This document shows, piece after piece, positions 4,273-37,275 of a DNA stretch of 37,975 nt (position 1 is its first letter; every line of letters starts with the position of its first letter). The stretch is from IMG/VR virus record IMGVR_UViG_2695420398_000011; one strand, written 5' to 3'. The notes beneath the pieces are model-generated. The model was not told the DNA's origin. It did not search any database and saw only the letters and a program-made list of their open reading frames with translations. Both the position numbers and the translations under genes were made by a program. This DNA is from a virus. Its lineage: Duplodnaviria > Heunggongvirae > Uroviricota > Caudoviricetes.

Positions 4273-4514
4273 CCATTCTGGACTACATCGCTGCCAATCC
4301 GGGTTGTAGCGGTGGAGAAATCGCCGCAGCACTGAATACACCAACCACAACCATTAATGCGGAGCTACGCCGTCTCTGGCGCAGCGGTTCAGTCATAAGA
4401 AAAGAGCGCAAAACAGGCGGTCGCTTTTCTTATCAGGTAAACCCGATGCCGTTTGGGTGTAGCAACCCTCTAACCCAGATGTTCAACCAGCTACTGAGAG
4501 AAATCAGAGCATGA
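4269..4514 (+). CDS. Putative winged-helix DNA-binding protein
   Basis: 81-aa ORF; start overlaps upstream stop; sequence GGEIAAALNTPTTTINAELRRLWRSGSV looks like a wHTH. Confidence 0.45.
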   Translation: MTILDYIAANPGCSGGEIAAALNTPTTTINAELRRLWRSGSVIRKERKTGGRFSYQVNPMPFGCSNPLTQMFNQLLREIRA

Positions 4515-4655
4515 GCACCTCCAACTGCCGGAAACCACGTCGGGCTTCAGCAGCTCATCCGGCAGCAAAACAAACTCCGTTAATTCCTGTTCCGGGCCTT
4601 TCCTGCACCTTGCGGCAAGAGGCCTTCGCACATCTGCAACAAGAGGATTGCCGCA

Positions 4656-5021
4656 ATGATTCTCGCCGAAGACTTTTTTGATTACCTGCTGAAAACCGAG
4701 CGCGATTTTGGTATTCGCGTTCTCGACCGCTATGCAATGTATCTGAAATCACTGCCGGAACAGCAGCTCCCGGACGGCCAGATTGTTATTGACGGGCGCT
4801 ACATGGTTGGTAGCTGCCAGGAGGATTACACACTTTCCCGCATCGAAAGCGGCACGCCTTCCGTACTGGGTATTTACCTGCGAACTTCATCTCTGATTGC
4901 TGATGTAATTGCTGACAGCATTCGCATAACACACCGTTATGCCAGCACAGAGAGCACCATGCAGGAAATCCAGCGGCTGGCTACCGTCTGCCACAATGCA
5001 CTGAGCGGAAAGGCGGAGTAG
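4656..5021 (+). CDS. Hypothetical early protein
   Basis: 121-aa ORF immediately upstream of replication gene A. Confidence 0.45.
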   Translation: MILAEDFFDYLLKTERDFGIRVLDRYAMYLKSLPEQQLPDGQIVIDGRYMVGSCQEDYTLSRIESGTPSVLGIYLRTSSLIADVIADSIRITHRYASTESTMQEIQRLATVCHNALSGKAE

Positions 5022-5026
5022 TCGGC

Positions 5027-7822
5027 GTGGCAACGGAGTACATCAGAGACTGGCAACAACCACGCCATGCAGTCGGTGGCGAGGGAACGGGGGAGCCTGT
5101 CCGCCCCTCCCTTCTTTCTTCCTGGCTGGATGCCTACCGGGCAGAGAACGAGCGCCGCCAGGAAATGGCTGATGCGGCGTTCTCCGCTGCACCACTGGGC
5201 AATCTGATTAATAAAAGCCTGGACGCACAGGAAAAACAGGACAAAGCCATCACACTGGCAAGAGAAGCCAGAAAGCAGGCACGCGGTGCGGTGGATGAAG
5301 CCATGGCCTCGCTGCGTCTGCTGCCGTCCTATCTGCGTGATCCGCTTATCCGCCATCTCTCTTTCCTGCACAAAAAACAGGAATCTGGCCACCAGAAAGG
5401 CAAAAAGAACCAGCAGGCGGAACGCTATGCGAGCGGAACCCTGCGCAAAATATTCGAACGTCTGGCCCGCACCGACCGTCGCTGGCTGACTCCGGGTTAT
5501 CGCTCCCTTGCCGGACGTGAACGTCTGGACGATTTGCTGTACCTGCCACAGCTCAACAAGCACCAGATACAGACGCTGGCCGTCATGACGGCGGCAATGT
5601 TCAGCAGCACCTTCGAAAAACTCTGCGATGGCTGTGGCGCGACCGACGGCGAGCTGACCATGGATATAACGCTGAAGGCGTATCAGATGCTGGCCCGCAT
5701 GGCGTTACATCTGCACACAGTGCCGCCGCATTATGACGCACTGACAACAGACAAAGACCGGAAGAACGAACCGGACACGGAACTGCTGCCGGGTGCAATC
5801 CTCCGCCTGACCTGTGCGGACTGGTGGAAACGCAAACTGTGGCTTTTACGTTGCGAATGGAGAGAGGAACAACTCCGCGCTGCCTGTCTAGTTTCCAGAA
5901 AAACATCACCCTATCTGAGTCAGGACGCATTAAGTGAATTTCGCGCACAGCGCGAGAAAACACGCGATTTCCTGAAAAGTTTCATGCTGGAAAATGAAGA
6001 CGGGTTCACGATTGATCTCGAGACAGTGTATTACGCGGGAGTAAGTAACCCGGTCCACCGTAAGGCAGAAATGATGGCCACCATGAAGGGACTGGAACTT
6101 CTGGCCGAAGCCCGTGGCGACAGAGCGGTGTTTCTGACTGTCACCTGCCCGTCAAAATACCACGCTACAACAGAGAACGGTCATCCGAATCCCAAATGGA
6201 ACGGCGCCACCATGCGCGATTCCAGTGATTACCTGGTTAACACTTTTTTTAAGGCGGTCCGCAAAAAACTGAATCGCGACGGCCTGCGCTGGTATGGCAT
6301 CCGCACGGTGGAGCCACACCATGACGGCACCGTGCACTGGCACATGATGGTCTTTGCACATCCTGAAGAAATCGACAGCATCGTGGACATCACCCGTGAT
6401 ATTGCCATTCGCGAAGACCGCCACGAGCTGGGCAATGACATAACTCCGCGCTTTAAGGCAGAGTACGTCGACGGTTCGAAAGGTACGCCGACCAGCTACA
6501 TCGCCACCTACATCGGAAAGAACCTGGACAGCCGCGCCGTGGATGGCATTGACCCGAAAACAGGCAAGCCACGCGTTGATCACGAAACCGGAAAATCAAT
6601 GGCCGAGAGCGTGGAACGCGCCATCGGCTGGGCGCGCCTTCACCGCGTCCGCCAGTTCCAGTTCTTTGGTATCCCCTCCCGTCAGGTATGGCGTGAACTC
6701 CGCCGCCTTGCCAGTCAGATGGCCCGCAACCCGGAAGGTCCACAACGTCTGGAAAATGACGCAATGGATGCGGTACTCGCTGCCGCTGATGCCGGGTGTT
6801 TTGCCACCTACATTGAGAAACAGGGTGGCGTACTTGTTCCACGCAAGGATTACCTGATTCGCACCGCCTACGACCTCGCAGAAGAGCTGAACGATTACGG
6901 CGAGCAAAGCGTACAGATTTACGGGATCTGGTCGCCACAAATCGGGGAATCTTCCCGCGTGTGCACGCACCCGGATAACTGGAAGCTGGTAAGACGTAAA
7001 CCGGAAGCGGAAGACAGCGCCCGCGAAAATGGTTTTGACCTTCAGGGCGGCCCTGCCGCCCCTTGGACTCGTGGCAATAACTGTCCCCGTGTACAGGAAA
7101 CGGACAACAACGGGACAGAACAGCCGGAAGAACGGCCATCACCGTGGCCGCAGCTTCCTGACGGCGTTGACGTGAATGAATGGATGCGCTCACTGAAACT
7201 GCACGAACGCCGGGCGCTGATGCGTTCGCTGCGTGACAAACAGGCAAAAAACAGCAGTGATGAAATGCAGAACTGGACACAGAGCCGCAAACAGCCACGG
7301 CCTTTGCCTGATAACCACGAGTTACTCGCTAAAGAATGGCGGGAGTCTGCTGAATCTCTCGGCCTGCATATCGGTGAACAGCAGATGCAGCACCTGTTAC
7401 GGGGCGGCAGTCTGTACGTTGACGGCAGCATCATTGCACCGCAGGGATTTGAAATTGTACGCAAACCGGATACCCGCCCGGACAGCCGAATCACGCAGCT
7501 CTGGCAGCGCCTGAGCCGCAATCACGGCGTAAGCAGCACGGAGATCCGCCATAACCCGGTCGCCAGCTATCTGGAACAGCTGGGGGCATCAGACCCCGAA
7601 GCCGCCGCACGCCTGGCATCCACACTTCAGCAGGACCAGAACACCATGAAAACCCCCGTTACCGTGCTTTCTGACATGCTGCGCGCCATCCGTGACGCAG
7701 AGCACGCACAGAGAATCAGTGAAACCACTGAACGCGCCCACCGCAAAGCAGACCTGCTGCGGGGGCCTGACCAGTGGAAACAAAAAACAGACAGAAACGG
7801 GATTCACAAATCCCGTAAATGA
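5027..7822 (+). CDS. A: Rolling-circle replication initiation endonuclease (P2 gpA-like, HUH superfamily)
   Basis: 931-aa ORF with probable GTG start; HUH motif HWHMMVFAH; position at end of early operon as in P2/186. Confidence 0.85.
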   Translation: MATEYIRDWQQPRHAVGGEGTGEPVRPSLLSSWLDAYRAENERRQEMADAAFSAAPLGNLINKSLDAQEKQDKAITLAREARKQARGAVDEAMASLRLLPSYLRDPLIRHLSFLHKKQESGHQKGKKNQQAERYASGTLRKIFERLARTDRRWLTPGYRSLAGRERLDDLLYLPQLNKHQIQTLAVMTAAMFSSTFEKLCDGCGATDGELTMDITLKAYQMLARMALHLHTVPPHYDALTTDKDRKNEPDTELLPGAILRLTCADWWKRKLWLLRCEWREEQLRAACLVSRKTSPYLSQDALSEFRAQREKTRDFLKSFMLENEDGFTIDLETVYYAGVSNPVHRKAEMMATMKGLELLAEARGDRAVFLTVTCPSKYHATTENGHPNPKWNGATMRDSSDYLVNTFFKAVRKKLNRDGLRWYGIRTVEPHHDGTVHWHMMVFAHPEEIDSIVDITRDIAIREDRHELGNDITPRFKAEYVDGSKGTPTSYIATYIGKNLDSRAVDGIDPKTGKPRVDHETGKSMAESVERAIGWARLHRVRQFQFFGIPSRQVWRELRRLASQMARNPEGPQRLENDAMDAVLAAADAGCFATYIEKQGGVLVPRKDYLIRTAYDLAEELNDYGEQSVQIYGIWSPQIGESSRVCTHPDNWKLVRRKPEAEDSARENGFDLQGGPAAPWTRGNNCPRVQETDNNGTEQPEERPSPWPQLPDGVDVNEWMRSLKLHERRALMRSLRDKQAKNSSDEMQNWTQSRKQPRPLPDNHELLAKEWRESAESLGLHIGEQQMQHLLRGGSLYVDGSIIAPQGFEIVRKPDTRPDSRITQLWQRLSRNHGVSSTEIRHNPVASYLEQLGASDPEAAARLASTLQQDQNTMKTPVTVLSDMLRAIRDAEHAQRISETTERAHRKADLLRGPDQWKQKTDRNGIHKSRK

Positions 7823-7923: not shown

Positions 7924-8883
7924 ATGAAAATTTGTATCGACGACGGCTCCACCAATATCAAGCTGGCATGGACTGAGAACGGCGAACGCCGCAACGCTAT
8001 CAGCCCGAACAGCTTCAAGTCGGAATGGTCTGCGCCGTTCGGTGGCACGCAGCCCGCGAACTACATGCTTGATGGCGTGCGCTATGGTTTTGATCCGGTC
8101 AGCGATCGCTTTGTCCAGACGACCGACACGCAATACCAGTACAGCGATGTGAATGTCATTGCCATTCATCACGCGCTGGTCAAATCAGGCATCACACCAC
8201 AGGAGGTGGATGTGGTTGTCACCCTGCCACTGAGCGAGTATTTCGACACAAACGCACAGCCGGACATGGCCAACATCAACCGCAAAAAAGCGAACGTTAT
8301 GCGCCCGGTGGAGTACCAGAACGGCAAAGCATTCACTATCCGTAACGTACGGGTTATGCCTGAATCTATTCCGGCTGGCTTTAAAGCACTGGCTGACATG
8401 AGTCCGTTTGAATCCCTGCTGATTGTGGATTTAGGCGGAACCACGCTGGATGTAGCAAAGGTTCAGGGACAACTGGCAGGTATCAGCCAGGTGTTTTGCG
8501 ATCCACACGTAGGCGTTTCCCTGATGGCCGATGCAGTACTGTCGGTGATGGCCACTAACGGTATGCGTACCAGTCACCACATCGCCAATACCATTATCGA
8601 ACATCGCCATGATGAAGCCTGGCTGCGCCAGCACATCCATAATGACGCGCATTACGCCAGCCTGATGGCGGTTATTCGTGAAAAGGAAGAAACACTGAAA
8701 CAACGCGTGATCCGCGCACTGGCGGGTTTTTCGGGTTACGGGCGGGTGATGGTTGTCGGTGGCGGGGCGGAGATTGTGGCACCCGCTATCCGCGAAGCCT
8801 GCGGAGTTAATGCGACTTTCATCGCGGACGGGGGGCCACAGTTTGCTCTGGTTAATGGGCTGTACGCAATGGACAAGGAGTAA
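7924..8883 (+). CDS. parM: Actin-like segregation ATPase ParM (StbA family)
   Basis: 319-aa ORF; N-terminus MKICIDDGSTNIKLAW..ISPNSFK..YSDVNVIAIHHAL closely matches plasmid R1 ParM as recalled (MLVFIDDGSTNIKLQW..). Confidence 0.9.
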   Translation: MKICIDDGSTNIKLAWTENGERRNAISPNSFKSEWSAPFGGTQPANYMLDGVRYGFDPVSDRFVQTTDTQYQYSDVNVIAIHHALVKSGITPQEVDVVVTLPLSEYFDTNAQPDMANINRKKANVMRPVEYQNGKAFTIRNVRVMPESIPAGFKALADMSPFESLLIVDLGGTTLDVAKVQGQLAGISQVFCDPHVGVSLMADAVLSVMATNGMRTSHHIANTIIEHRHDEAWLRQHIHNDAHYASLMAVIREKEETLKQRVIRALAGFSGYGRVMVVGGGAEIVAPAIREACGVNATFIADGGPQFALVNGLYAMDKE

Positions 8884-8887
8884 ACCA

Positions 8888-9199
8888 ATGACGACTCCAA
8901 CCAGACGGATAAGTTTCTATCTGAAGCCCGCCGCCGTCAAGAACGAAGGAGAAGCATGCGCCTGGCTGGACAGCCTTACACCAGAAGCCCGCAAAAGCGG
9001 CCAACGCGTGGCTTTTCTGGCCGGGCTGGCACTTCTGAAAATGAATCCGGCAGAGGCTTACCGACTAGCTGCATGGGCTGATGATGAAGCGTTATCAGTG
9101 ACACAAACCAGGACAGAACGCCCCGCATCACAGCCAGTATCAACCGCACAGATAACCAGTCAGATGGCCGGAAATATCCGGGCGTTATTTCCTGAATAA
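8888..9199 (+). CDS. parR: ParR-like centromere-binding adaptor (StbB family)
   Basis: ATG 8888 just after parM stop; ISFYLKPAAV..CAWLDSLTPEARKSGQRVAFLAGLALL and C-terminal IRALFPE parallel R1 ParR (IAFKLNPDVN..TLDSIP..AALTAGLAL..LRSLFPKE). Confidence 0.8.
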   Translation: MTTPTRRISFYLKPAAVKNEGEACAWLDSLTPEARKSGQRVAFLAGLALLKMNPAEAYRLAAWADDEALSVTQTRTERPASQPVSTAQITSQMAGNIRALFPE

Positions 9200-9262
9200 C
9201 ACAACATCAGGGCGAGTTCGCCCTGCTCTCCACCTCAGAACATAAACAAGGAGAACGACTTA

Positions 9263-9646
9263 ATGAGCGAAATCAACTATCAGGCATTACGTGAACGTTA
9301 TTCACCTGTGCCAGTACCGAAATGCCCTATTTGCGGCGAGGAAATGTCAATTCAGCGAATATCTGGAGCACAGGTTGTTTATGCCTGCTCCGGTTATGGT
9401 GATGATGGAGATTTCAAAATTGGTCGAACTCTTGCCGACGAACATTATGAAAAATCACGCGTAACAGTGTTGGATGTCGGGGATCCTGAAGTATTGGCGC
9501 TACTTGATTGGCTGGAAACCAAAGACAACCGAATCGCTGAACTGGAAAAAATCGCCACTGACTATGCACTTAAATTCCAGAAAGCACAGGACGCATTAAA
9601 GTACGCCGCTTTGCTGCATAGCAGGACAGCGCAGCTACAAGACTAA
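9263..9646 (+). CDS. Hypothetical zinc-ribbon / coiled-coil protein
   Basis: 127-aa ORF; CPICG...YACSGYG cysteine cluster then a helical C-terminus. Confidence 0.5.
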   Translation: MSEINYQALRERYSPVPVPKCPICGEEMSIQRISGAQVVYACSGYGDDGDFKIGRTLADEHYEKSRVTVLDVGDPEVLALLDWLETKDNRIAELEKIATDYALKFQKAQDALKYAALLHSRTAQLQD

Positions 9647-9736
9647 CTTAAAGCGGAAGATTAATACATGGTGAGTCAGGGTAATTTGTTTTTATCCCGA
9701 CAAATAAACAAAAAAGTGGACTATCTCTGTAGTATC

Positions 9737-10267
9737 TTATTCAGCATCGTCTCGTGCAGTCTGTGCATACGTCACAACAACGCCCAATGCATTAGTTTTC
9801 TTTTCAACATAGATAATATTGTCATATTCATAGTTACCATACGGATAGCAAATAAGAATATTTTTATGCAGATCGGGATCATCAACAAACGCTCCGGAAC
9901 AGCTTCTTGAACTACCGGATGTATACTCATACGGTGCAACATATGATGATGTTACTCCTGGTAAAAAATAAGTCACCATCATAAGAGGGATAATCAGGAA
10001 TATCCCTGTAAGAATGCAAGAGCCAGCATAAACCTTCAGGTATTCCGACAGTCCTTTCCAGCCACTTTGCTTCACTACCCCCCTCTTCACCAGAAACAAG
10101 GAGAAGAAAAAGGACATACCCATACTACACAAGATGTAATAATTGGATATACGCGAATTAAGATATGTAATCCTGTAGATATCTGCCCTCCACCAGTAAA
10201 AGAGGAAAATAATCCCTAGCACTGAAACAGTCATGCAAATCAAATAAGGATATGAATCTTTCTTCAT
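9737..10267 (-). CDS. Hypothetical integral membrane protein (AT-rich cargo gene)
   Basis: 176-aa ORF with about three predicted TM helices and a Tyr/Ser-rich C-terminal domain; strongly AT-rich relative to flanking phage genes. Confidence 0.5.
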   Translation of the reverse strand: MKKDSYPYLICMTVSVLGIIFLFYWWRADIYRITYLNSRISNYYILCSMGMSFFFSLFLVKRGVVKQSGWKGLSEYLKVYAGSCILTGIFLIIPLMMVTYFLPGVTSSYVAPYEYTSGSSRSCSGAFVDDPDLHKNILICYPYGNYEYDNIIYVEKKTNALGVVVTYAQTARDDAE

Positions 10268-21483: not shown

Positions 21484-22006
21484 TTCACTGTTACCGCCAT
21501 CAGCCAGCAATTTCATGCGTTGTGCCGAAGCTGTCGGAACGCGCATTACAGACATTCCGGTAGACCTCAACACGCTGTGGTCGCCGGACACCTGCCCGGT
21601 GCATCTGCTGCCTTATCTCGCCTGGGCATTTTCCGTTGACCGCTGGGATCGCAACTGGCAGGAAGAGACAAAGCGACAGGTGATTCGTGATGCATGGCTG
21701 ATACACCGACACAAAGGGACCATCAGCGCACTGCGCCGGGCCATTGAGCCGCTGGGATACCTCATTCGTGTGTCTGAGTGGTGGGAGTTCGGCGGAGAAC
21801 CGGGAACATTTACCGTTGAAGTCGGCACGCTGGACAGTGGCGTGACGGAGGAAATGTATCTGGAAATGGAGCGGTTGATTGCTGATGCCCGCCCGGTCAG
21901 CCGCCACATGACAGGGCTGAATATCATTCAGGAGATCCCGGGGGATATTTTCGCGGCGGCAGCAACTTACGACGGTGAAGTCATTACCATTTATCCGGAC
22001 GATTAA
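21476..22006 (+). CDS. I: Baseplate protein (P2 gpI-like)
   Basis: ATG 21476 overlapping J stop; 176 aa. Confidence 0.8.
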
Positions 22007-22008
22007 GC

Positions 22009-23835
22009 ATGAGTACCACAACACGAAAATTTAAAACCATTATCACTGATACTGGTGCCAAAAAATTAGCTCAGGCAGCCGCGCCAGATGGTAATCCTGT
22101 CCGCCTGACTCACATGGCCGTGGGCGACGGTGGCGGCACGTTGCCCACACCAGACAGTAAGCAGACCCGTCTGGTGCATGAGGTGTGGCGACATACTGTT
22201 AATCGCGTCATCCTGGACGCAACACATCAGAACCGCATTATTGCGGAGCTGGTTATTCCTCCTGAAACGGGCGGATTCTGGATCCGGGAAATTGGTGTAT
22301 TTGATGAGCACGGCGATTTAATCGCGGTGGGCAATACTGCCGAAAGTTACAAACCAACCGTTGCCGAGGGGTCCGGACGTGCACAAACATTTCGCACCAT
22401 TCTGACCGTATCCAGCACTGCCACCGTGGCGCTTACCGTGGATAACACCATGGTGATGGCCACAGTGGATTACGTGAATGACAAACTGAAAGAACATGAA
22501 CAGTCACGACGTCACCCGGACGCCTCGCTGACCGCAAAAGGCTTTGTTCAACTCAGTAGCGCCACTAACAGCACGTCTGAAGCACTGGCCGCAACGCCGA
22601 AAGCGGTCAAGACAGCCTATGACCTTGCTAACGGGAAATATACCGCTCAGGACGCCACGACGGCACGAAAAGGAATAGTCCAACTCAGTAGCGCCACTAA
22701 CAGCACGTCTGAAGCACTGGCCGCAACGCCGAAAGCGGTCAAGACAGCCTATGACCTTGCTAACGGGAAATATACCGCACAGGACGCCACGACGGCACGA
22801 AAAGGAATAGTCCAGCTCAGTAGCGTCACTAACAGTGATTCTGAAACGCTTGCCGCGACTCCGAAAGCGGTGAAAGCCGCTAATGACAATGCAAACGGGC
22901 GTGTGCCCTCTGGACGTAAGGTTAATGGCAAATCACTAGCCAATGATGTCAATGTTACATCGCAGGATATTTTTAACGACCAGAGTATTGAGATTGGTGC
23001 AAATCAGAATCTGGATAATTACAAAACACCGGGGCTGTACCATCAGCCATTGAATGCCAATACAAGCGCAGCGCTGAAATACCCGGAGAATTTTGCGGGT
23101 ACACTGGTTGTGCTTAAAAATGCCGGGATAACACAGATTTACTATGTGTATGACACATCCAGAAGCTATACCCGCAGCCAGTACTCAACGGGTGACTGGA
23201 CACCATGGACGCCACAAGATTCATTTCCGGTAGGTGCGGCGATACCGTGGCCTTCTGATTCAGTGCCTACAGGCTATACCGTTATGCAGGGGCAGACTTT
23301 TGATAAAACAGTCTACCCCCTGCTTGCAGTCGCTTATCCGTCTGGTGTGATCCCTGATATGCGTGGCTGGACGATTAAGGGCAAACCCGCCAGTGGTCGG
23401 GCCGTATTATCTCAGGAACAGGACGGCATTAAATCACACTCCCACAGTGCCAGCGCGTCCAGTACGGACTTGGGGACAAAAACCACATCATCATTTGACT
23501 ACGGCACCAAGACGTCCAGTTCATTTAACCATGGCACTAAAACCACGAATAGCGCCGGGGATCATTCACACAATATTCCTGTTGGCAACACTGGCGCTGG
23601 TAATGGTGTTTCGGCTGGTTATAACTCAGGGCTTGGCACTGGAAAAACAAGTAACGCAGGGGGGCACTCTCACACAGTAAATATTGGCGCACACACTCAT
23701 ACGGTAGGAATTGGCGCACACACACACTCCGTTGCGATAGGTTCACACGGGCATACCATCACCGTTAACGCTACGGGTAACGCAGAAAACACCGTAAAAA
23801 ACATCGCATTTAACTATATTGTGAGGCTTGCATGA
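22009..23835 (+). CDS. H: Tail fibre protein (P2 gpH-like), with internal tandem repeats and His-rich tip
   Basis: 608-aa ORF; repeated [19 protein letters not shown] units; C-terminal [35 protein letters not shown] HxH repeats typical of fibre tips. Confidence 0.85.
22540..22900 (+). repeat. Tandem 132-bp in-frame repeats within the tail fibre gene
   Basis: Copies at about 22540-22671 and 22672-22803 are near-identical, followed by a diverged partial third copy. Confidence 0.8.
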
Positions 23836-24734
23836 TTACGCTCATTCTTTCTGCACCAGTAACAGAAATGGCTGAAGCATTTAAGCAGGTATTTGCAAAT
23901 GCAGATAGTGTGAATATTGTCGGAAAGCCATTTGAAACAATCAGAGAATTTGACTGCATGGTAAGTGCGGCAAATAGTTTCGGCTTGATGGATGGTGGCG
24001 TTGATGCCGCCATTACCGCATTCTTCGGTACTCAGTTACAGTCCCGCGTTCAGAATCATATTCTTCGTGAATATCTCGGCGAACAGCCTGTAGGTTCTGC
24101 ATTTGTCATTGAAACGGGGCATAATCATCACCCCTGGCTGGTACATGCGCCAACAATGCGTGTTCCGTTGACAATTGACGGAACAGACGCTGTATATAAC
24201 GCAACCTGGGCCGCTCTGCTTGCCATCTTTCAGCACAATAAAAACGCAACGACAGACATGAAAATAAAAACAGTGGTATTCCCTGCAATGGGGGCCGGAT
24301 GTGGTCAGGTGCCGTTTGAAAGTGTTGCCCGACAGATGAAGCAGGCATGGGATAACTTTAATAAAAAAACAGAATCAATTAACTGGGAATACGCACAATC
24401 TCGCCAGTCGGCAGTATTTGGCACATATGCATACTGTCCGGGTAATTCCGTTTGCCGTTATGCGGATACTAAATATATTGGATGCGGCGATTATCGGACG
24501 TGTTGCTCTCGTTCCGGGCAACTCTGTATTAACCCTGAACATCAGGCTGATGATGTACTGATACAACATCAGGCTAATAACCGTTTTCGCCCTGGTTCGC
24601 ATATACACCGGATTAATCCAGAAAATCCCGTAGGTAATGTCACCTCTGGCGCACATAGCCACGGAAGTAGCATCGTTATTGGTACTCCTACCCATACGCT
24701 CAATAAACAATATTCTGTCTCTGATATTAAGTAG
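23832..24734 (+). CDS. Macro-domain protein with Cys/His-rich fibre-tip-like C-terminus
   Basis: 300-aa ORF, start overlaps H stop; [17 protein letters not shown] and [14 protein letters not shown] resemble macro-domain motifs (NAAN..GGGVDGAI, FPAISTG) as recalled; C-terminus [17 protein letters not shown] resembles HxH fibre tips. Confidence 0.6.
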
Positions 24735-24736
24735 AG

Positions 24737-25321
24737 GTGAACATGGATTTCAGAATGAGTGAACAATCACGGACCATAAAAATTTATAACCTGCTGGCCG
24801 GAACTAATGAATTTATTGGGGAAGGTGATGCATACATTCCACCTCATACAGGTCTGCCTGCAAACAGTACCGATATTGCACCACCAGATATTCCGGCAGG
24901 CTTCGTGGCTGTTTTCAACAGTGATGAGGCATCGTGGCATCTCGTTGAAGACCATCGGGGTAAAACGGTTTATGACGTGGCATCAGGGGACGCGTTATTT
25001 ATTTCTGAACTCGGTCCGTTACCGGAAAATGTTACCTGGTTGTCGCCGGATGGAGAGTGTCAGAAGTGGAACGGCACATCCTGGGTGAAAGATGCAGAAG
25101 CAGAAAAACTGTTTCGGGTACGGGAGGCAGAAGAAACAAAAAACAGCCTGATGCAGGTAGCCAGTGAGCATATTGCGCCACTTCAGGATGCCGTAGATTT
25201 GGATATTGCGACGGAGGAAGAGGCATCGTTACTGGCTGCATGGAAGACATATAGGGTATTGTTGAATCGTGTTGATACAACAGTAGCAGCGGATGTTGAG
25301 TGGCCAGTCGCCCCGCAATAA
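24737..25321 (+). CDS. G: Tail fibre assembly chaperone (P2 gpG/Tfa-like)
   Basis: 194-aa ORF; N-terminal region ([55 protein letters not shown]) matches enterobacterial Tfa proteins as recalled. Confidence 0.85.
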
Positions 25322-25364
25322 AAAGAAAAAGCCATCGACAGAAATATCGATGGCTTTATGTACT

Positions 25365-25970
25365 CTATTTATACAATACAACACCACTCTTTTTAGTTAT
25401 ATATGTGCAGTTTGATGGTATATCTTTATTTATAAAAGACATTGCACCTATTTTTACATTATCCCCAATTTTACGTGACAATCCAATGATGCAACAATTA
25501 GCTCCGATATCAACGTTACTACCAATTTTCACTCTTGAACCAGGCATGTCACCATCTATCTGTCCAATGGTAGTATTCTGTCGTAATACCAGATTTTCAC
25601 CCGCATCAACAGCAAAATGAACAACAATTCCAGCATGATGGGGAATTGTTAACCCTTTTCCAATATTTGCTCCCAATCCTATTTCACAACCAAATTTGTT
25701 AATTATTTTACTGTTTAACTTTTTGGCTGCTTTCTTATGTAATTTATTACCATTAATATACATTTCGTTAGCCAACCGCCACCAGAAAAGGAAATTCCGG
25801 TTACGCTGCTTTTTCTCTCTTAAAAGCCTCCAGATATCCATACGTTTCCGCCGAATTACTTCATGTTTCCAGAAGTTTTTTAAATTAGTAGAGTTCCCAA
25901 ATAAAACAAAGTGAATTGCCATTAAGTAAGACAGCACGAAAATCTCCTTAATTATTATTTCAGACCACAC
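25365..25970 (-). CDS. Hexapeptide-repeat acyltransferase (serine O-acetyltransferase / CysE-WcaB-like)
   Basis: 201-aa ORF; left-handed beta-helix repeats (IGLGANIGKG..IGSNVDIGANCCIIG..IGDNVKIGAMSFI); strongly AT-rich; at the position of P2 Z/fun. Confidence 0.7.
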   Translation of the reverse strand: MWSEIIIKEIFVLSYLMAIHFVLFGNSTNLKNFWKHEVIRRKRMDIWRLLREKKQRNRNFLFWWRLANEMYINGNKLHKKAAKKLNSKIINKFGCEIGLGANIGKGLTIPHHAGIVVHFAVDAGENLVLRQNTTIGQIDGDMPGSRVKIGSNVDIGANCCIIGLSRKIGDNVKIGAMSFINKDIPSNCTYITKKSGVVLYK

Positions 25971-26093
25971 ATGTTATAAGGTTAAGAGATTATAAAATCC
26001 TGTTATTTGTTATTCAAAAACAATTTTCTGAGAAGGACATACAACAGCAAGTCGCCAGTCACCTTCATCAGGAAATTGGCGACATACGTTAAA

Positions 26094-26588
26094 TCAGAGC
26101 AGCCCCTTAACTGAGCTGGCCGCACTATTAAGGGATGATGTCACCTTATCTTTGAAGCCGGACAACATATCGCTGAACGATGAGGATTGCAGGCGCTCCC
26201 GCAAATCCTCATCACAGCGTTCAAGAGTCAGTGAAAATTCTATCTTTTTCGCCTTACCGTAGCGATCAAACTCGGAACGGGTCGTATTCGTTCCGGTCAG
26301 GACATACATGCCGTAAATCTGCCCGACGCCATCAATCAGAGGCCAGGGTCGCCCTGTATACGCCTGCGTGGTCAGCAGCGACAGCGACACTTCACCACCT
26401 GTAATTTCAGGATAAAGCACACCAGAAAGAACGATGCGATCATCACCTGCACCGATATACTGCCAGCTTGCTGAACGGTTAACGCGTTCATTTTTCACAT
26501 GCCGCCAGCTTTTGTTTTGCTGTAACTGCTGATGCGGCAACGTGCGCAGCTCAAAAACAAACATGCCGTAGATCATCATCATGGCCAT
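26094..26588 (-). CDS. U: Tail protein U (P2 gpU-like)
   Basis: 164-aa ORF immediately downstream of tape-measure gene on the same strand. Confidence 0.8.
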   Translation of the reverse strand: MAMMMIYGMFVFELRTLPHQQLQQNKSWRHVKNERVNRSASWQYIGAGDDRIVLSGVLYPEITGGEVSLSLLTTQAYTGRPWPLIDGVGQIYGMYVLTGTNTTRSEFDRYGKAKKIEFSLTLERCDEDLRERLQSSSFSDMLSGFKDKVTSSLNSAASSVKGLL

Positions 26589-26594
26589 GACTCC

Positions 26595-29438
26595 TCAATC
26601 TTTATCGTAAAAACTGCCACGCCCGGCACGGGCGCGCCGTTCCATTTCTGCCCTGACCATTTCACCGACCAGTTTCGCCAGTTCGTGGGGATTCTGCGTA
26701 ACAACGTTATGCAGATGAACATGAATTTCACCACCAAATCCGGAGGCAACAGGCTCCCGGTTACGGGAAGTTGCAGGCACTGATGCTACTGGTGATCGTA
26801 TGGCCTCCGCCACCGGGCGGGTGCTGGCCGCAACAACAGGGACCAGCGCCGGAGGCAGCGGAGCCGGAACCACGGGGGTGATATTAATTGCGGGGGCAGG
26901 CTTACTGACCTGCGCAATCTTCCGCTCCTGCCACTCCCCACGAACAGCAAGTGCGCGGGGCAGGTTCTTAAAGACAATATCGCCGGGGCCAATGCGTTTT
27001 TTCGTCTCATCAACCAGCTTACCTGTGTTATCAGCAATTTTGCTTAGTCTGCGCAGCGTACCGGTATTGCTGTCTGTGAGCGGTTTGTTGTCTTTGGGTT
27101 TATCACCTCCGGTGCCATTGCCATTTTCCACAGGCTTCGGCGGATTGATTTTCGCCAGGTCCCCCTGAAGCAAGGCAACCTTGTCCTGAAGAATGGCAGC
27201 ACGCTGTGCGTCTTCGATTTTCTTGCGCGCCCTTTCCGCTTCATCCGGAAGCACACCGAGCTTTTCAAGTATCCACGCCAGCGTATCCAGCAACATTTTT
27301 GCAGGTGTCAGAACAAGTTGTAACGCACCGCCAAGAACGTTACCGAATATCTCGCCAGCACTGGTACATTTATCCAGCGTTTCCTTGCTGGACTCCATCG
27401 GTGACAGCAGCGATTTAAACCAGTTAAACACCTGGCTGATCCCACTCCCGATTGCGTCAAAAACAGGACCAAACCGTTCAAAGGTTTCGCGCAACGGGGT
27501 CAGCCTTTCCATAATCCCGCTGAACACCCCGGCAAAAAATGCCCTGATGGGATCCCAGTATTTCCAGATAAGAACGGCAGCTCCGGCAAGCGCAGCCACG
27601 ATAAGACCAACCGGACTGAACAACGCCCCGATAGCGCCTCCCAGTAAAGAAACGGAACCCGTCACCATTCCCCATAGTGCTGGCAGAACCCTGACAGCAT
27701 TCATTGATCCGGTCAGGAGGGAAAAACCAAGACGCAGTTTTGCCAGCGGGCCAGCAAGCACACCAATAGCCAGCGACAACGAGCCAACCGTTGCAGTCAT
27801 TGCCAGCAGTGCACTGCCTGCAATCAGTAGCTGGCGCGTCAGTGCGGGATGGGCCTGCGCCAGCGCCGTCACCTTTGATACCACACGCGTGAGCCACTGC
27901 GTGACAGAACGCAGCGGACCGTCAATCAGATCTGCAATGCGGATGCGCAACCCTTCCCATGCACTGCTGAGTGATTTCAGATCGCCGTCAAGGTTGTTGG
28001 CCATAACCTTTGCCGTGCGTTCAGCCTCACCGCGCGCGCCTTCAAGTTCTTTTCTCAGTTTGGGTAAGGAGCCGTCACCTGCCGCATCAACGAGGGCCAT
28101 AAATGATGTGAAAGCCTCTTCTCCGGCAATGTCCTTAAAGAACGATACCCGGTCAACTTCCCCGTATTTGCGGGTAGCTTTATAAAGGTCAGCCAGCACA
28201 TCCTCCATCGGGCGCATTTTGCCCCCGGCATCCGAGACAGACACGCCAAGCTCTTTCAGCGCCTCTGCTGCCGCCTTTGGCGGTGATGCCAGACGAGCCA
28301 GGCTGGCACGCATTGCCGTCCCGGCATCACTCCCTCTGATACCCATATTCGCCAGCACGCCCGCCATCGCTGCGGCCTGCTCCAGCGATATTCCCAGCTT
28401 ACCCGCCACCGGACCTGCATATTTCATGGTTTCGCCCAGCGCGCGAAGGTCAGTGTTAGTACGGGTAAACGCTGCTGTAAGCGTGTCACCGACCCGGTCC
28501 ATCTGGTCAGCGGAGAGGCCGAACTGCGTCAGGATATTTGAGCCAATATCCGCCGTCTCGCCAAGGTCCATACCGCCAGCCGTTGCCATGCTCAGCACGC
28601 CCGGAAGCGCAGCCTGAATGGCCTGCGGTGTGAAGCCAGCCATTGCAAGAAATGCCTGCCCACTGGCGGCATCGCCTGCGGTGAACTGCGTTTCAGAGCC
28701 AAGTTTTAACGCCTGCTCACGCAGCGCCTTAAACTGCGGGCTGTTTTTGTCGATTCGCGTCAGTGCCTGAACGCGGGACATCTCTTTCCCGAACCCGATC
28801 GCAGGCTGCAAAAAACGCCCGACAGCATAGCCGCCCGCCGCTGCCGCACCAATTGCCAGCGCACCACCTGTTTTCAGTTTTCCCGCTGTTTCCTGCGCGC
28901 TCGAATACCGCTCACGCGCCCGCGTTACACGCGCAAGCGCCTGCCGTTCGCGTTCAAGCTGGTTGTTGTATTGTTCGGTGCGTCTGATGGCCTGCTGGAT
29001 GGTGTTATCGCTGCCTGTCAGGGAAATGCCGTGGCGTTTCAGCTCTCCGCCAAGCTCCCGCATTTTCTGAATTTCCCGTGCGCGCGATTCATTCAGGCGT
29101 TCAAGCCGGGTGCTTAACTGCTGCATCAGCTTTTGTTGTTTTTCGCTGAGCACTGTACCCGTGCGTTGTAACTGATTAAGGGCGTTAAGCTGGCGTCGTG
29201 CTTTCAATATGCCAGCATCCGCTTTACTGACAGCGTCACGGGCGCGCTCAAATGATCGCGCCTGACGCTCGAGATTTTTGATCGCCCCCTGCGTTCGCTG
29301 GATGGAGTCACCAAACTGCCCCATCAGGCGGCGGGCGTTTTCGGCAGGACGGGTCAGCCTGTCAACGGCGCTGAAAGCGACCCGGATATCAAGAGTCTTC
29401 ATTGTCTGCATTCCCGCTGCGAAGTGCCGCCCGCTCAC
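26595..29438 (-). CDS. T: Tail tape-measure protein (P2 gpT-like)
   Basis: 947-aa ORF; coiled-coil N-terminus, Ala/Gly-rich hydrophobic middle; conserved position after E/E'. Confidence 0.85.
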   Translation of the reverse strand: MSGRHFAAGMQTMKTLDIRVAFSAVDRLTRPAENARRLMGQFGDSIQRTQGAIKNLERQARSFERARDAVSKADAGILKARRQLNALNQLQRTGTVLSEKQQKLMQQLSTRLERLNESRAREIQKMRELGGELKRHGISLTGSDNTIQQAIRRTEQYNNQLERERQALARVTRARERYSSAQETAGKLKTGGALAIGAAAAGGYAVGRFLQPAIGFGKEMSRVQALTRIDKNSPQFKALREQALKLGSETQFTAGDAASGQAFLAMAGFTPQAIQAALPGVLSMATAGGMDLGETADIGSNILTQFGLSADQMDRVGDTLTAAFTRTNTDLRALGETMKYAGPVAGKLGISLEQAAAMAGVLANMGIRGSDAGTAMRASLARLASPPKAAAEALKELGVSVSDAGGKMRPMEDVLADLYKATRKYGEVDRVSFFKDIAGEEAFTSFMALVDAAGDGSLPKLRKELEGARGEAERTAKVMANNLDGDLKSLSSAWEGLRIRIADLIDGPLRSVTQWLTRVVSKVTALAQAHPALTRQLLIAGSALLAMTATVGSLSLAIGVLAGPLAKLRLGFSLLTGSMNAVRVLPALWGMVTGSVSLLGGAIGALFSPVGLIVAALAGAAVLIWKYWDPIRAFFAGVFSGIMERLTPLRETFERFGPVFDAIGSGISQVFNWFKSLLSPMESSKETLDKCTSAGEIFGNVLGGALQLVLTPAKMLLDTLAWILEKLGVLPDEAERARKKIEDAQRAAILQDKVALLQGDLAKINPPKPVENGNGTGGDKPKDNKPLTDSNTGTLRRLSKIADNTGKLVDETKKRIGPGDIVFKNLPRALAVRGEWQERKIAQVSKPAPAINITPVVPAPLPPALVPVVAASTRPVAEAIRSPVASVPATSRNREPVASGFGGEIHVHLHNVVTQNPHELAKLVGEMVRAEMERRARAGRGSFYDKD

Positions 29439-33041: not shown

Positions 33042-33509
33042 TTATTGTTTAATGGCGTTTTCTATCCATGTCGCCAAATTGTTCTTGATATCGCTATAAG
33101 CGTCGTTAAAGTTAGGTTCATATACGAGTGGTTTAATTACTCGATCGCCTCGCTTAAATGTAAATTGGTCGAAAGGATTCGGTCCTTTTGTCCCATAGCC
33201 GTTACGAGGGCATTTCAGTCGATGAATATAAATACCCACCACAGCCTTACCCTCTTTCCAGGCTCTTTCGATCTCATACTTGACCCATGGGCGATTAGCC
33301 GTTTGACTCCCGATCAGTACTACTAAGCAGGATTTGCCATTTAAGCTCTGATTAATCCAATTCTTCACGCCCTGCTCAGTTCGTTTAATTTGTTCCCAAG
33401 TATTTGGGCTAACCGGTTCATCCCCCTCCAGCACTCCCATGTTACGAATCTGCTGTACCCGCATAACATCGTTATCAAAGTGAAAGCTGTAAAATACCTT
33501 ACGTTTCAT
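33042..33509 (-). CDS. thsB: Thoeris ThsB (TIR-like domain protein)
   Basis: 155 aa; KVFYSFHFDND...CLVVLIGSQTANRPWVKYEIERA...GKAVVGIYIH...KGPNPFD parallels Bacillus ThsB (RVFFSFHYQD..CVLIGSQTFNRRWVRYEI..KGPNPFD) as recalled. Confidence 0.85.
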   Translation of the reverse strand: MKRKVFYSFHFDNDVMRVQQIRNMGVLEGDEPVSPNTWEQIKRTEQGVKNWINQSLNGKSCLVVLIGSQTANRPWVKYEIERAWKEGKAVVGIYIHRLKCPRNGYGTKGPNPFDQFTFKRGDRVIKPLVYEPNFNDAYSDIKNNLATWIENAIKQ

Positions 33510-33511
33510 AT

Positions 33512-34978
33512 CTAACCTCCTAGTTTCTTTAAAATTTCTAAAACTTTCATTTCGATATTTGCCCGATTAGCAGAGAGATCTGCAAGCTGAGCAACTTCCT
33601 TTTCCAACCAAGGGTACCGGACAAAATGTTTACTTGGATCCGTCAGCATCTCGTCAGCTAGTTCCTTGGCCATATAACCAGTGACGCCAAGTGGAAGCAC
33701 GACAACCCCTGTTTCCTGAGCAATTTGAAACTCCCTTCGGACCCCATCAGCATTAACGATTCGACCATCATGGAGTTTATTCCCAAAAAGGAATATAGCG
33801 ATTCCAGAAAGACCAATCATACGCTGCCGATATTCGTCCCATAGCTCGCTCAGGGCTTTATCGTTTGATGAGTGTTGAGGGAATGGCCGCATGATAAGTT
33901 GCTCTTCTGAGTACTTATCAGGCTTAGAATAAATGGCTTCAAGAGCTCCGTTGATGACCGCACTACCAATACCCCATCCAAACCCATTGACAACTCGATA
34001 GCCATTCTTCACCAAAGATGACGAAAGTATGTGTACAAAGTTTAGTGCTTCCTGTTTGTCCCAAGCGCCATACTCTTCTGCACTACCAGATATAAATATG
34101 GTCTTCTTGAGGAAGCGACTCTCAATCTCTTTCAATATAAGTGGAATATCATCGTACTCGTTTACTAATACAGCCTGAATGCCAAAACGGAGCAAATCGC
34201 GAATATGATGTTCTTGCCTACGCTGCCTATACATAGCGCCAGCTTCATCTTCATTTCCTTGCGGCAGAGAGGGTTCCTTACGAAGAAAGCAGTAGTGTCT
34301 ACGACGATGCTTCTCCGGAACATGCAATCGGCTCAATATGTAATCAAGATTAGGATCAGTAAAACTGAAGCCAATAAATAAGAATGTCTTAGAAATCAAA
34401 TCTCCACTCAATGCTGTAACAAACCCCTCATGGGTCTTGTAGTACTGCTCATACTGAGCTTTATAAAGTATGGCGTCACCTGGCGAGCTAACATCACCAT
34501 GCATTTTGTAAACAACAGCATCTCGTTTAGGACGAGTGGAAATAAGATCATCGGTTCTGCGTTTAATATCTGCGACACGGTAGTTTTCTTTGAGACTATC
34601 TTCAATCAAAGTGTCATAGTTGGTTGTCCAATAAGTTCTAATGGGTAGTCTAGCAAGGATTTTATGGGCTTCGGAAGGTTCCGCTTGCTCCGAGAATTCC
34701 TCTAGGATTTTTCTAGCTAAACCAGTTGAGCTGTTGTTCTTGTTGACATGGTATTGTGCAACCGAAATTAAGTCGTGCTCTAGCTCAACAGAAAGGCCTA
34801 ATTCTTCAGCAATTTCACGCAGCAGTTCACTCCAATTAACGAAGCCGCTGGTTCTAGATAGGCCCGCACCAGCAAAAACGGCGGCAACCCCTTCTTCGAG
34901 ATCCTTCACATAAGTCCTGATAAAAGCTTCAACTTCAGCCGAAAACTGAACACTCATATTTTTAGACAATCCGGTCAA
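33512..34978 (-). CDS. thsA: Thoeris ThsA (N-terminal SIR2 domain, C-terminal SLOG domain)
   Basis: 488 aa; SIR2 hallmarks FAGAGLS, TTNYD, MHGD; C-terminal FISGSAEEYG...GFGWGIGSAVINGALE typical of SLOG; directly upstream of thsB on the same strand; AT-rich. Confidence 0.85.
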   Translation of the reverse strand: MTGLSKNMSVQFSAEVEAFIRTYVKDLEEGVAAVFAGAGLSRTSGFVNWSELLREIAEELGLSVELEHDLISVAQYHVNKNNSSTGLARKILEEFSEQAEPSEAHKILARLPIRTYWTTNYDTLIEDSLKENYRVADIKRRTDDLISTRPKRDAVVYKMHGDVSSPGDAILYKAQYEQYYKTHEGFVTALSGDLISKTFLFIGFSFTDPNLDYILSRLHVPEKHRRRHYCFLRKEPSLPQGNEDEAGAMYRQRRQEHHIRDLLRFGIQAVLVNEYDDIPLILKEIESRFLKKTIFISGSAEEYGAWDKQEALNFVHILSSSLVKNGYRVVNGFGWGIGSAVINGALEAIYSKPDKYSEEQLIMRPFPQHSSNDKALSELWDEYRQRMIGLSGIAIFLFGNKLHDGRIVNADGVRREFQIAQETGVVVLPLGVTGYMAKELADEMLTDPSKHFVRYPWLEKEVAQLADLSANRANIEMKVLEILKKLGG

Positions 34979-35370: not shown

Positions 35371-35631
35371 ATGTTCCGTTGTCCACTTTGTGGTGCATCT
35401 GCCCGTATCCGCACCAGTCGTCCGGAAAATGATTCAAACACTGTACGACAAAAGTATTACCAGTGTAATAACTTAGAATGCGGCGTATGCTTCTCAACAC
35501 TGGAAGCTTTTCATAAGTTCACATCAAAACACACCTCCTGCGTTCACTCTTCAGGGGATATTCCGTGGCATGAGCTGCCAGCTTCACACAAGGGAAACAA
35601 TCAGATGAGTTTGCCTTTACCTCAGAATTAA
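35371..35631 (+). CDS. ogr: Zinc-finger late-gene transcription activator (Ogr/Delta family)
   Basis: 86 aa; MFRCPLCGASARIRTSR...YYQCNNLECGVCF matches the Ogr C2C2 pattern (MFHCPLC..ARTSR..YHQCQNVNCSATF) as recalled. Confidence 0.85.
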   Translation: MFRCPLCGASARIRTSRPENDSNTVRQKYYQCNNLECGVCFSTLEAFHKFTSKHTSCVHSSGDIPWHELPASHKGNNQMSLPLPQN

Positions 35632-35719: not shown

Positions 35720-35956
35720 ATGTGGAAAGGCCCCGGAAAAACATCTCTGTTTAACCGAGGCCCTAACCGCATTACCTTGACAAGTGAAAGGTTAGCGCCT
35801 CTCCGGAAAAGGAGCAAGTGCTATGTCGCAAAAATCGCTTACGGCCATCACGTTCTGCGTGACGGCAATCCTCATCATCTGGATGCTGCACGGTTCGCTG
35901 TGCGAAATACGGATGAGCTTCTGGGGAGCGGAGTTTGCGGCGTTCTTACAGTGTAA
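35720..35956 (+). CDS. mok-like overlapping reading frame of the hok-like locus
   Basis: 78-aa ORF in a different frame that starts upstream of and spans the hok-like ORF, as in hok/mok/sok loci. Confidence 0.35.
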   Translation: MWKGPGKTSLFNRGPNRITLTSERLAPLRKRSKCYVAKIAYGHHVLRDGNPHHLDAARFAVRNTDELLGSGVCGVLTV

Positions 35957-35963
35957 GCAGTAA
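35823..35963 (+). CDS. Hok/Gef-family type I toxin (small membrane peptide)
   Basis: 46-aa ORF MSQKSLTAITFCVTAILIIWMLHGSLCEIRMSFWGAEFAAFLQCKQ; TM helix plus conserved SLCEI(R) and AAF motifs of Hok proteins; structured 5' leader; 3' hairpin at about 35975-35995. Confidence 0.7.
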   Translation: MSQKSLTAITFCVTAILIIWMLHGSLCEIRMSFWGAEFAAFLQCKQ

Positions 35964-36973: not shown

Positions 36974-37060
36974 TGGTACCCGGAGCGGGACTTGAACCCG
37001 CACAGCGCGAACGCCGAGGGATTTTAAATCCCTTGTGTCTACCGATTCCACCATCCGGGC
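36974..37060 (-). tRNA. leuZ: tRNA-Leu (anticodon UAA)
   Basis: 87-nt sequence matching E. coli leuZ as recalled; anticodon loop TTTAAAA in tRNA sense; 3' CCA encoded. Confidence 0.9.
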
Positions 37061-37072
37061 TCGGGAAGAAAG

Positions 37073-37146
37073 TGGAGGCGCGTTCCGGAGTCGAACCGGA
37101 CTAGACGGATTTGCAATCCGCTACATAACCGCTTTGTTAACGCGCC
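37073..37146 (-). tRNA. cysT: tRNA-Cys (anticodon GCA)
   Basis: 74-nt sequence matching E. coli cysT as recalled; anticodon GCA. Confidence 0.9.
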
Positions 37147-37199
37147 AAATTCTTCAGGCCTTTCAGCCAGACATCCGCTGACGCCGATGTCTTTTAAAC

Positions 37200-37275
<76 letters not shown>

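Follow-up and report, generated by a model that had tools for sequence, protein, structure and literature searches.

Organization of the acetyltransferase locus

The DNA studied here is a 37,975-nt virus record (IMG/VR IMGVR_UViG_2695420398_000011), hereafter referred to as the window, in which a strongly AT-rich gene lies between the tail-fibre assembly gene G and the tail gene U and encodes a predicted hexapeptide-repeat acetyltransferase. A preliminary description, made from the sequence alone, had placed this gene in an open reading frame (ORF) opposite to G, at 25365..25970 on the minus strand (a 201-aa form in the ORF list). The ORF is indeed present and is the most AT-rich spot of the window: the coding sequence (CDS) had a GC content of 0.346 and a GC3 of 0.30, as compared to 0.516 in the rest of the window, and the lowest-GC 573-nt segment of the whole 38 kb started at 25361, with only 0.3% of the segments being equally low. 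The start at 25970 had to be corrected, as it adds 11 spurious codons. Based on the AAGGAG sequence 6 nt upstream, the start positions of homologues and the PGAP annotation, the start codon is the GTG at 25937. Alleles from other phages had ATG or GTG at the same position, and the profile of PHROG 2154, which matched at 2.5e-87, begins at residue 24 of the 201-aa form.

The coordinates of the gene, its signals and the other features of the window are given in Table 1. The promoter-like site was near-identical in an allele (L073) whose protein was only 71% identical. Gene U is located 156 nt upstream in the same direction, and the only terminator-like site between the two genes (26118..26100) is weak; therefore, late read-through from gene U into the acetyltransferase gene is possible.

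Table 1. Positions of the acetyltransferase gene, its predicted signals and protein segments, and other features of the window
Feature	Position	Strand	Remarks
Acetyltransferase CDS	25365..25937	minus	190 aa; 573 bp, stop included; PGAP WP_000954202.1 "serine acetyltransferase"
11 extra codons of the ORF first described	25938..25970	minus	Most likely a 5' untranslated leader with the Shine-Dalgarno sequence
Shine-Dalgarno AAGGAG	25949..25944	minus	Kept, with the start, in divergent alleles
Predicted sigma70-like promoter, TTGAAT-17-TATAAT	26017..25989	minus	Consensus scan, 10/12 matches; ~50 nt upstream of the start
Predicted terminator	25357..25328	minus	Hairpin with 13-bp stem plus T-run; after the acetyltransferase stop, where this gene and G converge
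N-terminal five-helix basic domain, residues 1-82	25692..25937	minus	AlphaFold2 helices; invariant R54, near-invariant W52/W53
Glu85 codon (= CysE Asp143, partner of the catalytic His)	25683..25685	minus	Asp or Glu in 32/32 family members
His100 codon (= CysE catalytic His158)	25638..25640	minus	His in 31/32 family members
Hypervariable loop, residues 126-137 (= CysE active-site loop 184-195)	25527..25562	minus	Unconserved columns; candidate determinant of acceptor specificity
Tail-fibre assembly gene G	24737..25321	plus	Caudo_TAP, Pfam 3.8e-40; convergent with the acetyltransferase gene, shared cassette
Tail gene U	26094..26588	minus	Pfam Phage_P2_GpU 1.5e-38; last gene of the FI-FII-E-T-U operon
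Macro-domain protein, 300 aa	23832..24734	plus	Pfam Macro 9.7e-19; PHROG 2613 7e-146, function unknown
ParM-like segregation protein and partitioning protein	7924..9199	plus	Between replication gene A and the portal gene, P2 old/tin hotspot
Gene D (VgrG/Pvc8-like) ORF, 413 aa	31695..32936	plus	ATG and divergent sheath gene FI 26 nt apart
Type I Thoeris pair	33042..34978	minus	Between D and ogr; GC ~0.43
ogr/Delta zinc-finger late activator	35371..35631	plus	Right prophage end
Hok/Gef toxin gene	35823..35963	plus	Right prophage end
tRNA-Leu(taa), tRNA-Cys, tRNA-Gly cluster	36974..37275	minus	Right prophage end, followed by pgsA

The prophage and the slot between G and U

The stretch 24700-26700 matched the chromosome of E. 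coli strain H3 at 100% identity, and at least 80% of it was held by 495 of 5,426 complete E. coli genomes (~9%), including O157:H7, O55:H7, O39, O84:H7 and O22:H8 strains. The H3 record, annotated by PGAP, contained a complete P2-family prophage beside the tRNA-Leu/Cys/Gly cluster and pgsA. Its tail genes were 97-98% identical to those of phage P88 and other Xuanwuvirus/Peduoviridae members and, as in P88, genes FI-FII-E-T-U are on the strand opposite to V-W-J-I-H-G in the window. The window is thus a P88-like (Xuanwuvirus) E. coli prophage and not a genome of P2 order.

The content of the slot between G and U differs among the sister phages. In P88, 500465-2, P884B11 and phiSM, it holds an alternative fibre tip, a chaperone and a DNA invertase, and in PhiR44_2 it is empty. 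With its atypical composition, its own predicted promoter and terminator, and this variable or empty slot, the acetyltransferase gene is a moron-like unit, as had been proposed.

The preliminary description had also stated that P2 carries Z/fun between G and the tail operon. This agrees with the P2 record, in which fun(Z) is flanked by G and FI and has the opposite orientation; moreover, a phage with P2 gene order (L074) had a 67%-identical homologue of the acetyltransferase gene in the exact fun(Z) slot (J-I-H-G <gene> FI-FII-E-T). For the window itself, the likeness is in the niche, i.e., a position for non-essential cargo directly after G and on the strand opposite to H-G, but not in the gene order, since the tail operon is inverted and the acetyltransferase gene follows U co-directionally rather than preceding FI. 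Homology to P2 Fun(Z) (528 aa) was ruled out, as the two proteins showed no sequence relationship (BLASTP E = 15).

Fold, active site and enzyme family

Searches of the deduced protein detected Pfam Hexapep at E 3.8e-5 (23.6 bits, under the 27-bit gathering score) and 21 beta-helix families of NCBIfam, with EpsC (3.6e-21), CysE (9e-17) and WcaB (1e-14) ranking highest. By sequence, 46 beta-helix acyltransferases in the PDB matched, the best of them (the top ten) being mostly serine acetyltransferases (SATs), and the top matches by Foldseek were all SATs, with alignments spanning 140-210 columns. These comparisons agree with the earlier assignment to a CysE/WcaB-like left-handed beta-helix acyltransferase, CysE, EpsC and WcaB being the closest relatives. 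Judged from the profile, sequence and model comparisons, the protein is a member of the left-handed beta-helix (hexapeptide-repeat) acyltransferase superfamily.

A monomer model was built with AlphaFold2 on an alignment of 32 family members. It predicted helices at residues 2-13, 17-28, 35-41, 45-62 and 65-82 with pLDDT of 84-91. The segment they form, residues 1-82, had an isoelectric point of 11.4 and 20 Lys plus Arg as compared to 4 Asp plus Glu, and it aligned with the last helices of the CysE N-terminal helical domain, around R115. It is shorter than the CysE domain (~140 residues), and Pfam SATase_N was not detected in the protein. The basic N-terminal extension that had been described as unusual is therefore real and basic, but is a conserved, shortened helical domain of the SAT type rather than an odd appendage.

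The family was aligned by MAFFT to E. coli CysE, the sequence of which had been verified to be identical to PDB 1T3D. The catalytic His and its acidic partner were identified as His100 and Glu85, respectively, and both columns were conserved (Table 1), suggesting that the acetyltransferase is very probably enzymatically active. On the other hand, residues D92, D157, R192 and H193 of CysE are replaced by Q44, P99, S134 and R135, respectively, and these four serine/cysteine-binding columns were unconserved across the 32 members. Residues 126-137, corresponding to the CysE active-site loop, formed the most variable part of the family. In addition, the C-terminal tail for CysK binding and cysteine feedback was absent, the protein ending with VLYK near CysE residue 245. 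Because all four serine-binding residues of CysE are unconserved, the protein is probably not a serine acetyltransferase and the name given in the databases is probably wrong.

The assignment as a true CysE was rejected on the basis of the binding-site residues and of the curated thresholds, which were missed for cysE (TIGR01172, 61.6 vs 210.65; PRK11132, 36.6 vs 397). The scores were also below the cut-offs for EpsC (NF041874, 75.6 vs 150) and for the WcaB equivalogs (54.2 vs 196 and 53.3 vs 194.65). A related explanation with a real precedent, and the main rival in that respect, is that the gene encodes a genuine, feedback-insensitive SAT, i.e., an auxiliary metabolic gene raising O-acetylserine/cysteine or CysB signalling and thereby changing exopolysaccharide or biofilm indirectly. 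PGAP and several phage records use the name serine acetyltransferase, all closest solved structures are SATs, and cysE1 of Rhodobacter capsulatus provides the precedent (PMC9552610). In view of the scores far below the curated cysE and PRK11132 cut-offs, the loss of D92, D157, R192 and H193 from the family (two of them in the hypervariable loop), and the missing CysK-binding tail and SATase_N domain, we consider this explanation very improbable. The family most likely represents widely distributed, uncharacterised phage O-acetyltransferases that are probably mis-named. The literature search for a characterised member yielded annotation-level mentions only, with "reason unknown" stated for JL22 and "fitness" for ORF4 of phiNP.

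Allelic variation and selection

The 79 viral loci fetched represented 50 distinct nucleotide alleles. One allele was frameshifted and one was cut by a contig end, and the remainder were intact. Pairwise dN/dS values were 0.06-0.26 over a dS range of 0.06 to ~2, which, as judged from these alignments, indicates that the gene is under purifying selection. Pseudogenization and loss of catalytic residues, named in the preliminary description as findings that would contradict it, were thus not observed: the gene is intact, with His100 and Glu85 conserved and with selection acting on the protein.

A mosaic allele was noticed in an IMG/VR locus (L073, gene at 5001-5570), which had 71% identity overall and a dS of ~1.9. 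Its promoter and the regions for residues 1-42 and 157-190 were almost identical to those of the window gene, and residues ~43-156, including the catalytic core and the variable loop, were replaced; the differences clustered in that loop. This pattern points to intragenic recombination that would have swapped the acceptor-binding part.

Linkage to tail-fibre genes

At 90% identity the homologues formed 36 clusters, 33 of which had a downstream neighbour within 700 nt. A Caudo_TAP (tail-fibre assembly, tfa) gene was the immediate downstream neighbour in 13 of these 33 non-redundant loci, always convergent and at a distance of -36 to +54 nt. The convergent pairing occurred in at least six lineages, namely P88-like, P2-like (L074), P1-like, phiNP, Hafnia phage yong2 and 613R2. 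In the P1-like phages JL22 and Ro157c2YLVW, G and the acetyltransferase gene together were 92% identical to the window over 1.18 kb. Across lineages, pairing with tfa was kept at 35-67% enzyme identity, and at 35-45% it was still found in phiNP, Hafnia phage yong2, vB_EcoM-613R2 and three further loci (L091-L093). Since in vB_EcoM-613R2 the enzyme was 35% identical whereas the tfa/chaperone was 77% identical, these comparisons suggest that enzyme and tfa were paired repeatedly, rather than inherited as one block or brought along by hitch-hiking.

The JL22 gene lies inside the cin-invertible C segment of a P1-like phage-plasmid, and JL22 and the IMG/VR contig L065 have this segment in two different orientations. 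In JL22 (L002), the segment was bounded by 602-nt inverted repeats with 99% identity (4325-4926 and 9187-9788). A remnant of such an invertible segment was considered for the window and rejected, as no gix/cix-like AAACCNNGGTTT site was found in it; unlike in JL22, the gene is not invertible here. No long inverted repeats were found in 21500-26700. A 16-nt inverted repeat, 94% complementary, was present at 22922-22937 (within gene H) and 25910-25925 (5' end of the acetyltransferase gene); genuine invertible segments have much longer repeats, and this one is probably due to chance.

Plasmids of the EPEC adherence factor (EAF) type from enteropathogenic E. coli (EPEC) (L009-L012) carried a 50%-identical homologue at 6001-6594, downstream of the bfp pilus operon. 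It was preceded by a 157-aa ORF with partial similarity to DNA invertases (PHROG 125, 7.5e-15), and a psiA fragment and insertion sequence elements came after it. From these neighbours, the copy on these virulence plasmids seems to have been left behind from an invertible tail-fibre segment of a phage.

Such arrangements bear on the explanation that the gene is a functionless passenger, a remnant carried along when fibre/chaperone cassettes and invertible segments recombine between phages. The location inside the cin-invertible segment of P1-like phages, the replacement of the alternative fibre plus invertase in P88-like phages and the invertase remnant beside the EAF-plasmid copy are all in line with it. 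However, a passenger would hardly be expected to show dN/dS values as low as those given above up to a dS of ~2, nearly all alleles intact, catalytic residues conserved in 31/32 (His) and 32/32 (Asp/Glu) members, and divergent alleles repeatedly paired with tfa genes. We therefore give this explanation almost no credence.

Genomic contexts of relatives and the possible acceptor

Some relatives of the acetyltransferase gene were found among genes for lipopolysaccharide (LPS) synthesis. In Leminorella grimontii, a 48% homologue was located in an LPS core cluster in the order GT8 (glycosyltransferase family 8)-WaaY kinase-unknown gene-homologue-WaaL, and in Halopseudomonas oceani a 44% homologue followed HldE, MsbA and a WaaP/Kdo-kinase-like gene. 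In prophages, the homologue formed two-gene modules by a tail-fibre gene with 1) a GT25 "LPS biosynthesis" glycosyltransferase in Xenorhabdus, and 2) a GT9 heptosyltransferase-family protein in Morganella. Similarly, next to tail-fibre genes it was paired with HtrL/YibB in two loci (L079/L080) and with a PHROG-1962 glycosyltransferase in others (L085-L089). Some relatives were on plasmids.

The fibres of P1, P2 and Mu bind the LPS core. Synthesis of the core is finished at the cytoplasmic side of the inner membrane, where a soluble acetyl-CoA-dependent enzyme could reach it. Adsorption of phiNP and of the P88-like phage phiSM requires glucose residues of the LPS outer core (PMC6456863), and in phiNP the tfa gene is convergent with the gene for a 44% homologue.

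Proposed function

A role in acetylation of a surface polysaccharide is plausible from these comparisons, and is favoured because relatives reside in LPS-core clusters or beside LPS-type glycosyltransferases and because the linkage to tail-fibre/chaperone genes of LPS-core-binding phages is persistent. More specifically, we propose that the gene is for lysogenic conversion, its product O-acetylating the LPS core and thereby masking a phage receptor, a proposal to which we give about an even chance. The acceptor, the expression of the gene in lysogens and the exclusion of other phages that we infer are as follows. The moron of the P88-like prophage would encode a cytoplasmic, acetyl-CoA-dependent O-acetyltransferase with the CysE/WcaB-branch fold, i.e., a short basic helical domain plus a left-handed beta-helix, presumably trimeric, in which His100 would be the catalytic base, paired with Glu85. 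In the lysogen, the sigma70-type promoter of the gene itself would drive transcription, to which late read-through out of the tail operon may contribute. The enzyme would add an O-acetyl group to a sugar in one of the envelope glycans that are built at the cytoplasmic side of the inner membrane. The favoured candidate is the LPS outer core, which is probably bound by the tail fibres encoded adjacently and by those of related P2-, P1- and phiNP-type phages. Modification of the core would mask the receptor, so that superinfecting phages of the same receptor class would be excluded and released progeny would not be lost on lysogens or debris. Such masking would account for the joint movement of the gene and the fibre/chaperone cassette.

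An extended version of this proposal is put forward tentatively, and we hold it to be doubtful. In this version, the product would be a receptor-editing enzyme coupled to fibre/chaperone cassettes, acetylating the LPS outer core and moving among P2-, P88-, P1- and phiNP-type phages; the variable loop and the mosaic alleles would diversify the acceptor in an arms race between phage and receptor, and in P1-like phages the orientation of the gene relative to late fibre transcription would flip with the choice of fibre.

Several observations weigh against receptor masking at the LPS core. With regard to linkage, the same allele (98-99%) was found beside fibre tips of 67-100% identity, which means that the enzyme is not matched one-to-one with the fibre tip; morons in general tend to gather downstream of tail-fibre genes, and the apparent linkage to fibres could be exaggerated for that reason; and the 50% homologue on EAF plasmids is away from any tail fibre. 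With regard to the acceptor, the association with the LPS core was seen for relatives and not at the window gene itself, only ~6 of ~36 non-redundant contexts were LPS-related, and several chromosomal relatives were orphans with uninformative neighbours. We know of no description of O-acetylated LPS core in E. coli. Finally, the beta-helix part of the AlphaFold2 model was poor (pLDDT ~50) and offers no basis for analysis of the acceptor pocket, and the promoter and terminator are consensus matches only.

It is also conceivable, albeit unlikely, that an enzyme of the same class acts on another glycan, such as O-antigen units, enterobacterial common antigen, colanic acid or capsule, the effect being a change of serotype or immune recognition or a block of glycan-dependent phages. 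The best-matching families include WcaB (colanic acid) and EpsC (exopolysaccharide), more distant relatives (L101, and L112 onward) have GT2 and further polysaccharide genes as neighbours, a capsule O-acetyltransferase encoded beside a tailspike gene is known from prophage CUS-3 (NeuO), and prophage acetyltransferases are suspected of modifying the capsule in Klebsiella (PMC13123978). However, the presence of the same allele across strains of many O types (O157:H7, O55:H7, O39, O84:H7 and O22:H8) fits a shared acceptor better than a repeat unit peculiar to one serotype, and the GT9, GT25 and HtrL partners as well as the chromosomal waa contexts point to the core instead of O-antigen or capsule.

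A further explanation is that the product is an anti-phage or anti-defence factor that acetylates a non-glycan target (protein, nucleotide signal or small molecule) and merely uses the cargo slot. The annotation of the P2 record, according to which fun(Z) in the same slot blocks T5, the presence of other defence cargo (Thoeris I) in the prophage, homologues located with Abi, HicAB and Hok genes at the ends of prophages, and the occurrence of the family on plasmids would be compatible with this. The CysE/WcaB branch, however, is known for small hydroxyl acceptors and sugars. None of the 5,027 PADLOC models (PADLOC-DB 2.0, candidate PDC families included) matched at E <= 0.01; thus, the single-gene defence role suggested in the preliminary description received no positive support. 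A study of P2 hotspots, which surveys the old/tin locus only, makes no mention of acetyltransferases (PMC9122126), and a defence role would explain neither why glycosyltransferases are repeatedly found as partners nor why relatives occur in waa clusters. Taken together, we regard a defence function as distinctly unlikely.

Whichever acceptor applies, about 9% of complete E. coli genomes, including the O157:H7 and O55:H7 lineages, contain the gene, probably misnamed. If the LPS core is acetylated, susceptibility to phages would be determined in part by a widespread gene that moves horizontally. This would concern LPS-core-binding phages (P1, P2, Mu, P88-like phages and many candidates for therapy), and core-directed antibody or serum recognition might change too. 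It would then also add an example of enzymatic glycan editing to the rule that links exclusion genes to receptor-binding genes. Should it instead turn out that the enzyme is a true SAT, or that the gene confers no phenotype, the gene would be an ordinary mis-annotated moron.

Other cargo of the prophage

The macro-domain gene is situated between H, whose stop it overlaps by ATGA, and G, inside the late fibre operon, and its product has a Cys/His-rich C-terminal region of ~120 aa. The protein could be a virion-associated enzyme that processes ADP-ribose or removes acetyl groups. Obligatory coupling of the macro-domain and acetyltransferase genes was ruled out, since only some acetyltransferase loci (e.g., L016, L018 and L072) had the macro gene and many had the enzyme without it. 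The Thoeris pair consists of a 155-aa TIR protein (PADLOC ThsB1, 3e-70) and a 488-aa SIR2 protein (ThsA1, 6e-203). A plasmid-partitioning system is present at the old/tin hotspot in about a quarter of P2-like phages according to Rousset et al. (PMC9122126). For gene D, PGAP called a 266-aa product and a small partial pseudogene only. A Hok/Gef gene, as found at the right end of the prophage, was also beside a 57% homologue of the acetyltransferase gene at another prophage end (L005-L008).

Comparison with known systems

The closest precedent comes from prophage CUS-3 of E. coli K1, whose NeuO is a polysialic-acid O-acetyltransferase. This enzyme acts in the cytoplasm on a glycan that is the receptor of the phage itself, and both it and the window protein are prophage-encoded beta-helix O-acetyltransferases with genes beside that of a receptor-binding protein, neuO being downstream of the endosialidase tailspike gene and next to int. 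NeuO differs in that 1) it belongs to the NodL/LacA/Maa branch, so that a 42-residue beta-helix stretch alone could be aligned (40% identity, E 2e-4), 2) it modifies the K1 capsule, whereas the strains carrying the window gene are not K1-specific, and 3) its gene has phase-variable AAGACTC repeats. Phase variation of the neuO type was ruled out for the window gene, as no tandem repeats were found in 25200..26200.

E. coli CysE (1T3D) shares with the window protein a helical N-terminal domain, a beta-helix with an active-site loop and the catalytic His/acid pair, whereas the window protein has a five-helix, shortened N-domain, unconserved serine-site residues and no regulatory tail. WcaB and EpsC resemble it in size (160-190 aa), in the short helical cap followed by the beta-helix and in the active-site motif HH.G.V. 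They differ in that the window protein scored below their cut-offs, is longer by ~30 residues at its N-terminus (alignment to the EpsC model begins only at residue 59 in the 201-aa form) and is encoded in a prophage and not in a wca or eps cluster.

In Rhodobacter capsulatus, cysE1 lies directly downstream of the tail genes of the gene transfer agent (GTA) and has its own transcript (PMC9552610). Its product is a true SAT, which complements E. coli cysE and is active in vitro, and the gene affects both exopolysaccharide and GTA receipt (PMC9552610). The likeness to the window gene is in the position right after tail genes and, by the function proposed here, in influencing the polysaccharide receptor of the particle.

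With regard to the logic proposed, the gene can also be compared with receptor-masking genes.

Known genes of this type that are linked to genes for receptor-binding proteins are llp of T5, beside pb5, and cor of phi80, N15 and T1. In these systems, as proposed here, a small exclusion gene is linked to the receptor-binding module, so that specificity and masking move together. The llp and cor products are lipoproteins or small proteins that bind FhuA, whereas the acetyltransferase would achieve the same end by enzymatic modification of a glycan.

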